Shown here: piece after piece, positions 33,605 through 37,928 of the stretch | How the letters are laid out: every line of letters starts with the position of its first letter | Position numbering within the stretch: position 1 is the first letter of the stretch | Origin: Planctomycetota bacterium | GTDB taxonomy: Bacteria > Planctomycetota > UBA11346 | Reading direction: 5' to 3' | Assembly (NCBI GenBank): GCA_038213805.1 | Contig: JBBQSO010000051.1 | Location: 1 to 37,935, forward strand | Length of the DNA: 37,935 bases | The notes under the pieces: model-generated | Told to the model about the DNA's origin: nothing | Seen by the model: only the letters and a program-made list of their open reading frames with translations | Databases searched by the model: none | Made by a program: the position numbers and the translations under genes

Positions 33605-34804
33605 CTAGGCCGACGGGTCGGTTTGGATCCAAGCGCTTGCGAAGGCCTCCGCGCCGGCGCGGTCGGCGAATGCGCCCTCGAGCTGGGCGTCCTCGAGCGC
33701 ACGCAGCAGTCCGCCCAGGGCCGGTCCCGGTCGCGCGCCCAGGGCGATGAGGTCACTGGCGCGCAGCAGCGGGCGCCAGGGGGCGGCGGCGGTCTCTGCT
33801 GCCAGCCCTGCCGCCAGCGCGACGGTGGACGGTGCGCCGGACGTGCGCGCCGCGAGCAGCTGCACAAGACTTGCAGCGAGGGGGTGCTGCAGGACGCGAC
33901 GGCGCGCGCTGCGCGGCCCGGCGGCGAGTTCCGCCGCGGTCTGCTGCTGGTCGAGCAGCCAGCGGATGGCGTCGCTGCGCGCGCGGGGCAGCGGCTGGGC
34001 CGCAAGCCAGGCGCTCACCTGCCCCGGGTCTGCGGCGGCCAGCCAAACGGCGGCGGCGACCTCGGGCGCGGCTTCCTGCGGCAACGCGTCGAGGGCGACT
34101 CCCGTGGCGGCGAGATCAGCGGCCGTCAGGTCCGCGAGCGGCGGGCTGAATTCCGCGAGGCGGCCGCTGGCTGCAAGCAGCCCGAGCCACGCGCCGCGCC
34201 GCGGCCCGGCCAGGCCCTTGGCCCATTCCTGCAGCAGCCGTTCGGGGGCGAGGCCGGCGAGGCCGGTGGTGCACACGGCGGCCCAGGTCGCGGGCTCGAT
34301 GGCGAGTTCGAGTTGAGCGGCGAATCGCAGCGCGCGCAGCACACGCAGCCGGTCCTCGCGCAGACGAGCCGCCGCGTCGCCAACCGCGCGCAGGCAGCGC
34401 GCCGCGAGGTCGACAAGACCCTCGACATGGTCGATGACCAGGCCCTGCAGCGGGTCATAGAGCAGTGCGTTGATCGTGAAATCACGGCGCTGCACGTCGC
34501 AGGCGGCGCTGGTGAAGGCGATCGTGCTCGGCCGCCGCCCATCAATGTAGGCGCCGTCATGGCGAAAGGTCGCGACCTCGACGTTGGCCCCGCCGGGCGC
34601 CACGACGATGATAACGCCGAACTGGCGACCCACCGCGACGGTGCGCCAACCGGCGGCCGCGGCGCACGCTTCGACCTGTTCCGGATGCGCATTGGTGGCG
34701 ACGTCGGCGTCGTGCACCGCGCGGCCGAGCAGCAGGTCGCGGACGCAGCCTCCGACGAGGTAGGCCTCGTGGCCGGCCGCTATGAGGGCGCGTACGATGG
34801 GTAT
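33605..34804 (-). CDS. cca: CCA tRNA nucleotidyltransferase / poly(A) polymerase family protein (start uncertain)
   Basis: The frame stays open upstream of the ORF-track GTG 34717 and reads [37 protein letters not shown]; also [32 protein letters not shown]. 34804 is an in-frame ATA used only as a placeholder boundary. Confidence 0.85.
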
Positions 34805-34845
34805 CGCATCGCGCCAGGGCGGCTGGTCCGCTGGACAGGCGAGCG

Positions 34846-35013
34846 GCCGGCTGATGGCTGATGGCTGATGGCTAATGGCTGTCCCCTGACCATGAGCTGA
34901 GCGCGAACGGCGTCGCTAGGAAACTGCGGAGAACGCTGGTCGGGACGATCTCGACCTCTGCAGGTCCCGGTAGGATATCGCCATCAGCTGGCAGCCATCA
35001 GCCATCAGCCGGC
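34846..35013. repeat. Inverted pair of heptamer arrays (GGCTGAT)n ... (GCCATCA)n
   Basis: GGCTGAT x3 + GGCTAAT + GGCTG at 34849-34881 and GCCATCA GCTGGCA GCCATCA GCCATCA GCC at 34980-35010; 34846-34867 is the exact reverse complement of 34992-35013. Confidence 0.9.
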
Positions 35014-35020
35014 TATCGAT

Positions 35021-36178
35021 TCAGCTCGGCAGACTGATCGGCATGATCAGATACGTCGCATTCACCTCGCGCATGATCAGGCCGCGGCTCAGCTCGATCG
35101 CCATCTTGTCGCCCTTGAAGACCTTGAGCACGTCGCTGAGGTACTGGGCGTTGACGCCGAGCTTGAGCGGCGAGCCCTGGTAGACGCAGGGCACCGGGAT
35201 GCGCGCGCTGCCGTTGGTGTAGTTCAGGTTGCTGAACACCGCCTGATCCTTGTCCAGGCTGACCACGATGCCCTTGCTGGTCGAACTGGTCATCAGTGCG
35301 GTGCGGCGCACCGCCGAGGCGAGCTCGGCGGCGTCGAAAGTGACCGCGCTGGGCGCGGACTGCGGCAGGGCGTTGCGGTAGGAGGGAAAGTTGCCCTCGA
35401 CCAGCCGGCTGGTGAGTTCGACCTGCAGGCCGCCCTGGACGGAGAGACGCACGAACACCAGTTTGCCTGAGAACGCGAGATCGACGCGCTCCGAGGGCAT
35501 GCCGGCGAGGATGCGCTGCAGGTGGTTGATGGTCACCGCAGGGATGACCGCCTGCACGGCCTCGCCACCGGGCGCAAGCTTGAAGGCGTCACTCTTCTCG
35601 ACCGCCTCGCAGAGCATCTTGCCGTCGGTGGCGGCAAGCACGACCTCGCCGTGACCGATCGAGACGAAGATCCCGGAGAGCACGGCGCTGGTGCGATCCT
35701 TGTCCATGCCGAACACCGTTTGGCGGATCATCTCTTCGAAGCGCGGGCCGCGCAGCGTCACGTAGGGCACGTCGGTGGGAAAGAACTGCACCGGCGGGAA
35801 GGTCTCACCGACCACCGCCGGGATCTGATAATCGCCATCGGCGAGGATGATCTGCAGCTGGCTGCTCTCGGCCTTCTGATCGAGCCGCAGATTCACCGAC
35901 TGCGAGCGCGACTCCTTGAGGATCGCGGTCAGCTGGCGGGCCTGGACGACCGCCTGGCCGGGGCTGTCCACGACCACTCCACGCACCAGCGAGCGCAGGC
36001 CGACCTGCAGGTCGGTGGCGATGATGTCCAGGTGGTCCTTCTGCCCATCGAAGAGCAGGTTGGTGAGAATCGGCTTGGCGCTGTTGGAGGGCACCACCGC
36101 ATCAGCCGCCTGAATGCCTGCGAGCAGGTCATTGCGGTCGCAGCGCAGGGAGAGGGAGGTGGATGCGGTTTTTTCCAT
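35021..36178 (-). CDS. dnaN: DNA polymerase III subunit beta (sliding clamp)
   Basis: KPILTNLL, ATDLQVG, VLAATDGKML, SRLVEGNFPSY, GVNAQYLSDVL, C-terminal YLIMPI; 385 aa. Confidence 0.95.
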   Translation of the reverse strand: MEKTASTSLSLRCDRNDLLAGIQAADAVVPSNSAKPILTNLLFDGQKDHLDIIATDLQVGLRSLVRGVVVDSPGQAVVQARQLTAILKESRSQSVNLRLDQKAESSQLQIILADGDYQIPAVVGETFPPVQFFPTDVPYVTLRGPRFEEMIRQTVFGMDKDRTSAVLSGIFVSIGHGEVVLAATDGKMLCEAVEKSDAFKLAPGGEAVQAVIPAVTINHLQRILAGMPSERVDLAFSGKLVFVRLSVQGGLQVELTSRLVEGNFPSYRNALPQSAPSAVTFDAAELASAVRRTALMTSSTSKGIVVSLDKDQAVFSNLNYTNGSARIPVPCVYQGSPLKLGVNAQYLSDVLKVFKGDKMAIELSRGLIMREVNATYLIMPISLPS

Positions 36179-37834: not shown

Positions 37835-37928
37835 GCCATCAGCCATCAGCCATCAGCCATCAGCCATCAGCCATCAGCCATCAGCCATCAGCCATCAGCC
37901 ATCAGCCATCAGCCATCAGCCATCAGCC
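37835..37928 (+). repeat. Perfect heptamer tandem repeat (GCCATCA)13
   Basis: 13 exact units at 37835-37925 plus GCC, ending 7 bp before the window end. Confidence 0.97.

Follow-up and report, generated by a model that had tools for sequence, protein, structure and literature searches.

A cca-like gene without a canonical start

The window, which is the whole 37,935-nt stretch of DNA analysed here, is contig JBBQSO010000051.1 of assembly GCA_038213805.1, a draft of 180 contigs (5.5 Mb, completeness 90%) from an uncultured Planctomycetota bacterium. It was compared with G010 and G003, separate assemblies from two sister species of the window organism. A cca-like gene lies behind dnaN, and the features of the junction are collected in Table 1. 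The frame of the gene is open for 436 codons (34915-33605, minus strand) and begins directly after the TAG at 34918-34916. An earlier note on this DNA had claimed that no ATG, GTG or TTG lies in frame back to this TAG, and both the minus-strand reading and the translation bear this out. The first such codon is GTG 34717, with which the corresponding entry of the ORF list (33605..34717) begins. In the open frame this GTG comes as residue 67, 15 codons past the Y of YLVGGCVRD, and starting there would cut off Pfam profile positions 1-16. It was rejected as a start because it comes too late, downstream of the GGCVRD motif; the same note was also right in placing the conserved motif upstream of it, as the translation and a Pfam match beginning at residue 51 indicate.

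The protein matches the PolyA_pol head domain (PF01743) over residues 51-176 and all of the profile (positions 1-126 of 126), with an E value of 1.8e-32 and 112.8 bits against a cut-off of 23. Its best NCBIfam match is the CCA tRNA nucleotidyltransferase model (NF009814/PRK13299) at 213.2 bits, below the equivalog cut-off of 290, and the pcnB family comes behind it at 172 bits. The family motifs are the glycine motif GGxxRD, the two carboxylates of DxD, RRD and EDxxR, and the translation contains GGCVRD, HDADV, QRRDF and REDRLR. Compared with class II CCA-adding enzymes (PRK13299), the head domain and the catalytic motifs are shared, whereas the C-terminal half is divergent, with an overall identity to G003 of 70%, and the score stays under the cut-off. 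By profile and motifs the gene is thus a member of the class II tRNA nucleotidyltransferase/PolyA_pol family, with a predicted CCA-adding activity.

Table 1. Features of the dnaN-cca junction, in window coordinates
Feature	Position	Strand	Remarks
cca-like gene, proposed extent	33605..34876	-	from ATT 34876 to the stop TAG 33607-33605
YLVGGCVRD	34736..34762	-	nucleotidyltransferase head domain begins
GTG, first canonical in-frame start	34715..34717	-	from the ORF list
CPADQPPW codons	34814..34837	-	most upstream clear coding signature; protein identical in all three species
ATG 34893, out of frame, with a 37-codon ORF that crosses the array	34780..34893	-	ATG is CTG in G010
ATC, second candidate start	34853..34855	-	31 codons before the Y of YLVGG; at most one codon from the L004 ATG
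cca-proximal array, (CAGCCAT)4.7, reading AISHQPSAIS in the cca frame	34849..34881	-	Tandem Repeats Finder; length and frame as in G010 and G003
ATT, favoured candidate non-canonical start (ATC in G010 and G003)	34874..34876	-	first in-frame near-cognate after TAG 34918
SD-like AGGGGA, 5 nt before ATT	34882..34887	-	starts at -11; within a 17-nt block identical in G010
Element core, non-coding	34882..34979	-	cores of 62 pairs unlike; window/G010 differences even over codon positions
Upstream in-frame TAG (CCG in G010)	34916..34918	-	closes the frame
dnaN-proximal arm, inverted array (CTGATGG...; TGA in every frame)	34980..35010	-	pairs with the proximal arm
dnaN (beta clamp)	35021..36178	-	upstream neighbour; strand and frame those of cca

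The array is one arm of a dispersed element

Tandem Repeats Finder assigned to the cca-proximal array a period of 7 with 4.7 copies and 92% matches, and its longest perfect run is 25 nt, or ~3.6 units. The repeat is abundant well beyond this site. A two-unit 14-mer, with at most one mismatch allowed, has 16 matches in the window against 0.03 expected, and a three-unit 21-mer matches 803 times genome-wide, its reversed control 0 times. A genome scan returned 265 GCCATCA arrays and 64 inverted pairs of the form (TGATGGC)n-core-(GCCATCA)n within 300 bp, while the opposite arrangement was found 0 times. The cores, compared in 62 pairs, are mutually unrelated, and many contain terminator-like hairpins. 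In the window, the pair 34980-35010 / 34849-34881 occupies the whole dnaN-cca spacer, and the cca tract is one arm of this inverted-array element, which is dispersed genome-wide.

By inspection, the unit (GCCATCA/TGATGGC) holds no run of three G, and it is stop-free in all frames on the strand of the gene, as the earlier note had it for (CAGCCAT)n; the gene-facing arm is open in all three frames. Within the distal arm begins a short ORF that shares the frame of cca and has TAG 34918 as its stop. Rfam returned nothing at E<=1 on 34600-35150, and a consensus scan of 34600-35300 for promoters and terminators returned 0 and 0, with no sigma-70-like promoter in the core. An array of 13 units stands at the end of the window, 24 arrays lie at most 30 nt from contig ends, and the contigs of the assembly break at long arrays.

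Coding frames adjacent to arrays were collected with filters (open for at least 100 codons, GC3 >=0.75, GC2 <=0.6) that drop genes of unusual composition, and of the 53 frames so obtained cca is the sole one without a canonical start. The adjacent genes mostly start 3-30 codons after the array. A crude GC3-based gene caller run on the genome missed cca itself. Two other loci resemble the cca junction in part. At the ABC ATPase gene C19:6377, an element between two opp-like genes replaced an ATG that is present in the sister species, and a new ATG with AGGA, located in the core, reads through the array. At the PRAI/TrpF gene C31:26364, an array follows directly after the ATG and is read in frame, with a net gain of 21 nt against both sisters. 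Together with a comparable array that stands in frame at the cca junction of two other genomes (G005 and G007, below), these loci show that such elements can replace the 5' end of a gene or move into it. It counts against an ATT or ATC start at cca that at the ABC ATPase gene, the only other overwritten start seen, a canonical ATG took over.

Related loci place the array where the ancestral ATG was

A scan of a genome collection for relatives returned just G010 and G003, to which the window protein is 91% identical over 184 residues and 70% identical over 423 residues, respectively. Metagenome scans for closer relatives or strains gave 0 loci with a degenerate DNA pattern and 3 distant loci (39-46% identity) with the protein. 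The heptamer array at the cca site is carried by only three species, the window's, G010 and G003, which are related to each other, and this weighs against an ATT or ATC start. The whole case is computational, based on three related draft genomes.

The dnaN-cca synteny was read at nucleotide level and is present at 10 of 10 orthologue loci. Concerning the N-termini of orthologues, to which the earlier note had pointed, the array-free ones begin with a plain ATG, which in L003, L004, L006, L008 and L009 stands 32-41 codons before the Y or F of the motif. In L004 it is 19 nt from dnaN to this ATG, in L003 the ATG and the dnaN stop overlap, and in L006, L008 and L009 the ATG follows dnaN by 35-50 nt; that of L004 maps within one codon of the window's ATC 34855. 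By this comparison, the array has replaced the ancestral cca ATG and sits at its position. In G005 and G007, which belong to the same genus, an analogous inverted pair of octamer arrays occupies the same junction in frame, and its core contains a GTG preceded by GGGAGG; the octamer array is most likely read through from this core GTG.

Array length and frame are constant in three species

In G010 and G003, the array at cca has the length and the frame that it has in the window, and from the first in-frame ATY codon through the head domain the three sequences align without a gap. That codon is ATT in the window and ATC in both G010 and G003, and the array, read in frame, gives AISHQPSAISR for the window, AISQRPSAISR for G010 and PISHQPSVISR for G003. 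The conservation of ATY is not independent evidence for a start, because the repeat unit itself dictates it. Between the window and G010, the dnaN-proximal arm differs, in a MAFFT alignment, by substitutions and small indels of 3 nt in total, without any change of unit.

The ATG at 34893 is in another frame and is followed by 37 codons that end at TAG 34782-34780. The earlier note had seen that it lies 176 nt upstream of GTG 34717, out of frame, and that one more unit or two fewer would restore the frame. The arithmetic is right (+7 nt, making 183, or -14 nt), and it could mean slipped-strand phase variation, in which cells with 5.7 (or 2.7) units would have ATG 34893 in frame and the assembly would represent the OFF state. 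A 7-nt unit, not being a multiple of three, fits such a switch, in-frame read-through from an upstream ATG occurs at PRAI/TrpF and the ABC ATPase, and in H. influenzae hmw phase variation is reported to be driven by heptamer SSRs (PMC12721329). However, the ATG of the ON state is unconserved (CTG in G010 and absent in G003) and has no SD-like motif before it. The tract has kept its length in three species despite pS values of 0.3-0.45 among them, and its perfect run of just ~3.6 units compares with at least 11 units reported for natural hmw tracts (PMC12721329). A majority of cells in the OFF state would also be hard to reconcile with the 19 of 59 tRNA genes that lack CCA (below) and with an omega of ~0.1 on the window branch. 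With the ATG unconserved, array length and frame constant and selection retained, we consider the extra-heptamer switch very unlikely. Ribosomal -1 frameshifting from ATG 34893 was rejected by inspection, which found no X XXY YYZ slippery site.

An error of assembly or consensus would lead to the same ATG, either through a missed unit or through a 1-nt indel in the GGGG at 34883-34886. A draft of this contig number and completeness that breaks at long arrays invites this suspicion, as does the standing of cca as the single exception among 53 array-adjacent frames; this last point also weighs against an ATT or ATC start, in that a local error is conceivable. By contrast, the independent assembly G010 has an identical 17-nt block, GGGG included, and an array of equal length. 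A 33-nt tract with an anchoring variant unit is, moreover, far shorter than the arrays at which contigs break, and the real start under such an error would again be the unconserved ATG 34893 without an SD-like motif. We judge such an error distinctly unlikely, and the collapsed repeat considered by the earlier note improbable in particular, since the sister assembly reproduces the 33-nt tract length exactly.

Selection and coding pattern delimit the start

Between R22 and W33, the window and G003 differ by 8 synonymous and 3 non-synonymous changes, those within CPADQPPW being all synonymous, and by this pattern the coding region extends as far as the array. Against G010 (171 codons) omega comes to 0.10, against G003 (420 codons) to 0.35, and the window branch alone carries 22 synonymous against 5 non-synonymous codon changes. 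These substitution patterns indicate that cca is under purifying selection, the window branch included. Taken together with the shared array, this selection means that the gene has stayed functional in its present frame from a time before the three species separated.

Upstream of the array the picture is a different one. In the spacer above the 17-nt block GGTCAGGGGACAGCCAT, a count by eye gives 9 differences in 36 nt between the window and G010, spread 4/3/2 over the codon positions. In G003, the first canonical in-frame start is an ATG 81 codons above the first ATY and 119 before the Y of YLVGG, and these 81 upstream codons have a GC3 of 0.65 against 0.87 in the gene body. Because of the even spread in the one comparison and the low GC3 in the other, the spacer is non-coding. 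Given a coding pattern up to the array and a non-coding spacer beyond it, the start must lie between TAG 34918 and codon C27 (34837), and the only near-cognates in this interval are ATT 34876 and ATC 34855. Further downstream in the frame are ATA 34804, ATC 34798 and ATA 34783; all three were rejected as starts, since the signature of coding is already seen above them.

In G010, an in-frame GTG precedes the first ATY by 17 codons, and at its place the window has GCA followed three codons on by the TAG; this GTG could act as a start in G010, which speaks against ATT or ATC there. Lineage-specific upstream starts that read through the array (the GTG in G010, the ATG in G003) are another way to read the junction. 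The window would then have recently lost its start (GTG to GCA, CCG to TAG), and its gene would be a young pseudogene or be rescued, for example by ribosomes that start at in-frame ATGs of the distal arm and read through TAG 34918. Such in-frame starts without an intervening stop do exist in G010 and G003, the octamer array of G005 and G007 offers a probable parallel, and the short ORF of the distal arm has the frame and the end that read-through would call for. The stretch from the G010 GTG to the array nevertheless evolves as non-coding sequence, and the G003 upstream region lacks the GC3 of coding DNA. As for a pseudogene, the 436-codon ORF is intact in DNA of 69% GC, the window branch shows the 22 against 5 changes given above, and CCA addition is needed. 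We regard this course of events as unlikely, if less so than an error in the assembly.

Need for CCA addition

Aragorn found 59 tRNA genes in the genome, 40 of which end in CCA and 19 of which do not, the sole tRNA-Cys being among the latter. On contig C23 lies the sole paralogue of the cca-like gene, which at 310.6 bits exceeds the PcnB subfamily cut-off of 305.65. The earlier note had raised both points, a second CCA/PAP paralogue and the encoding of CCA by the tRNA genes, and the answers are one paralogue of PcnB type and 19 of 59 genes without an encoded CCA. By family assignment, the window gene is the only candidate CCA-adding enzyme found in the genome. A cca gene that is permanently OFF is therefore unlikely, since these 19 tRNAs would depend on it and no other CCA-adding candidate was found.

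A start codon proposed to be supplied by the repeat

We propose the following course. In a common ancestor of the three species, which share a genus, an inverted heptamer-array element would have come to fill the dnaN-cca spacer, and its cca-proximal arm would have replaced the 5' end of the gene together with the ancestral ATG. The gene would have remained needed and expressed, with translation beginning at the array's first in-frame near-cognate, ATT 34876 (ATC in the sisters), aided by the SD-like AGGGGA or GGAG just upstream. The protein would begin with (M)SHQPSAISRPLACPADQPPW..., and little of it would be produced. Initiation at this ATT/ATC is the best reading of the data, and we give it about an even chance; the use of ATT/ATC as an initiation codon and the low expression level are both what we infer from the comparison. 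ATC 34855 would be the less likely of the two starts. The earlier note had left four options side by side, and the comparative data favour one of these, its non-canonical in-frame start; the note had recognised neither the tract as an arm of a genome-wide element nor the loss of the ancestral ATG to that element.

AGGGG stands at -11 from the first ATY in the window and in G010, and G003 has GGAG at -10 in a flank that is otherwise different. Before ATG 34893, no SD-like motif was found. In a survey of 2915 first ATGs of the genome, SD-like 4-mers preceded 37%, a share that the crude start calls may understate, against 13-14% in two control windows, and their start positions peaked at -12 to -9. 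As judged from the 184 flanks listed, arrays do not generally have this motif beside them. The 16S 3' end that would carry the anti-SD is absent from the assembly, and the motif is weak, which weighs against an ATT or ATC start.

The two arms are predicted to pair as RNA in a stem of 22+9 bp (MFE -101.4 kcal/mol, z -6.7), and the arm stem of G010 is weaker (z -2.7). If dnaN and cca were transcribed together, this predicted stem of ~31 bp would enclose the array, and the core has no promoter-like site; this counts against initiation at ATT or ATC. RNase III might cut the arm stem in the dnaN-cca transcript, free the array and set a 5' end for the ribosome, with the start still at ATT/ATC. Apart from the strong predicted fold and the lack of a core promoter, this idea draws on H. 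influenzae, where processing of a heptamer hairpin in the 5'-UTR is reported to raise hmw expression (PMC12721329). It is derived from the fold alone, however, and the G010 arms pair less well; it would refine initiation at ATT/ATC and brings no alternative start codon. We assign such processing little probability, about as little as an assembly error.

In its full form, the proposal is that the element erased the ATG of the only CCA-adding gene, that the repeat supplies AUU or AUC instead, that this arrangement has long been kept in three species, and that expression may be gated by folding of the arms or by RNase III. We advance it tentatively, at slightly less than an even chance.

Relation to known systems

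In E. coli, translation of pcnB is initiated at AUU (PMC2939334, citing Binns and Masters 2002), and infC and pcnB are given as the two confirmed AUU-initiated genes of E. coli (PMC2939334; bioRxiv 10.1101/063800). Initiation from AUA, AUC, AUU or CUG in E. coli is reported at 1-2% of that from AUG (bioRxiv 10.1101/063800). Both ATT and ATC are very weak and rare starts, ATC especially, which weighs against either of them at cca. The infC of the window genome, checked as a possible non-canonical start, begins ATG ATG. Like E. coli pcnB, the window gene belongs to the PF01743 family and has no usable canonical start upstream of its conserved motif, an in-frame AUU, and an SD-like motif at working distance from it, and as in pcnB a weak start would restrain the level of a low-abundance RNA-tailing enzyme. 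Unlike pcnB and infC, its codon would be supplied by a repeat after loss of an ATG, the sisters have the weaker AUC, the start is a predicted one, and the enzyme is of the CCA type, with a PcnB paralogue elsewhere in the genome.

Like the tract of H. influenzae hmw, the cca tract consists of tandem 7-nt units, stands immediately before a gene and forms an arm of a long hairpin (PMC12721329). The hmw tract is described as having at least 11 units in variable number, located in the 5'-UTR of an adhesin gene (PMC12721329), whereas the cca tract has few units, does not vary in length among three species, adjoins the coding frame or runs into it, and is that of a housekeeping gene. Long heptamer SSRs have been described in Xanthomonas (GGGAATC, with 70-75 convergent pairs per genome), in Nostoc (GGGGA(C/T)T) and in Beggiatoaceae (TAACTGA, before start codons) (PMC4692102; PMC4679880). 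The GCCATCA arrays resemble these in being dispersed 7-mers that are mostly intergenic, lie near start or stop codons and often form inverted pairs (PMC4692102; PMC4679880). They differ from the Xanthomonas and Nostoc type in having no G-runs, so the G-quadruplex idea is inapplicable to them. Intragenic heptamer repeats are reported to be rare, and removal of a start codon by an array is not described in the available text of the two papers (PMC4692102; PMC4679880). No report of a repeat that erases a housekeeping ATG and supplies a non-canonical start was found in the literature searched. Taken singly, the repeat class and initiation at AUU are both known; their proposed combination at cca in three species appears to be new.

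Very few bacterial starts besides AUG, GUG and UUG have been confirmed, and the E. coli paper (bioRxiv 10.1101/063800), in its available text, names just infC and pcnB. If the proposal is true, cca would be a second member of the pcnB/cca family with an AUU/AUC start, in a distant phylum, and weak initiation would look like a recurring brake on RNA-tailing enzymes. It would also be a housekeeping gene whose non-canonical translation start is borne by a repeat. The case also shows what heptamer arrays can do to genes: they replace start codons and move into reading frames by 21-nt steps, and the host gene survives.

Gene callers are affected by such a junction in more than one way. In the window, they would truncate the protein at GTG 34717, with loss of the active-site glycine motif, or call the gene a pseudogene. 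In G003, they would add a spurious 119-codon leader, 81 codons of which precede the first ATY.

Orientation of the heptamer element and its arrays within genes

Throughout the genome to which the window belongs (G000), the heptamer element has a fixed orientation, with 64 pairs spanning no more than 300 bp arranged as (TGATGGC)n-core-(GCCATCA)n and none reversed. Arm 1 carries TGA in all three frames while arm 2 is open in all three, and this holds whichever strand is read. The need to form a simple hairpin would leave this asymmetry unexplained. Four G000 arrays lie in frame within genes and read (P)SAISHQPSA.

Coordinates of repeat arrays and related features
Feature	Position	Remarks
Heptamer element, window copy	window 34849-35010	
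Heptamer array, PRAI/TrpF gene	C31:26364-26394 (L028)	after the ATG; net +21 nt vs sister species G003 and G010
Heptamer array, ABC ATPase	C19:6377-6407 (L029)	N-terminus; ATG of sister species replaced
Heptamer array, E2 acyltransferase	C61:8062-8092 (L034)	in the lipoyl-E3-binding linker
Heptamer array, TonB-dependent receptor	C73:12887-12917 (L035)	signal peptide/Plug domain interval
Octamer array pair	L005 1350-1500 (G005); L007 1340-1500 (G007)	dnaN-cca junction
Short ORF	window 34919-35008, minus strand	cca frame; stop TAG 34918
tRNA gene cluster	C70:4968-7308	13 genes in 2.4 kb
PcnB-subfamily paralogue	C23:48611-50221 (L026 1612-3222)	TIGR01942, 310.6 bits
Contig-end GCCATCA array	window 37835-37928	perfect, 13.4 units

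The dnaN-cca junction

In two other species of the genus (G005 and G007) the dnaN-cca junction carries two 8-nt arrays in inverted orientation, (GTCCGGAA)n ... (GGACTTCC)n, of which the arm nearer the gene is in frame and reads TSGLPDFRTSGLP. One and a half of these octamer units match the native coding sequence of the array-free cca orthologues (loci L008 and L009). The junction seems to be a repeated target of such array elements. In the window, dnaN, the short ORF and cca share one frame and are separated solely by TGA 35023-35021 and TAG 34918-34916. The short ORF begins at ATG codons located within the dnaN-proximal arm.

tRNA genes and the PcnB-type paralogue

About half of the 13 clustered tRNA genes of G000 do not encode CCA, and the cluster could represent a tRNA array of mobile or phage type. 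The genome also encodes a PcnB-subfamily paralogue, in which some 90 residues precede the YLVGG motif and the tail is Gly/Arg-rich.

Arrays at contig ends

The G000 draft has 360 contig ends, and 24 arrays are found no more than 30 nt from one of them, indicating that long arrays break this assembly. The window contig itself terminates within a perfect GCCATCA array.
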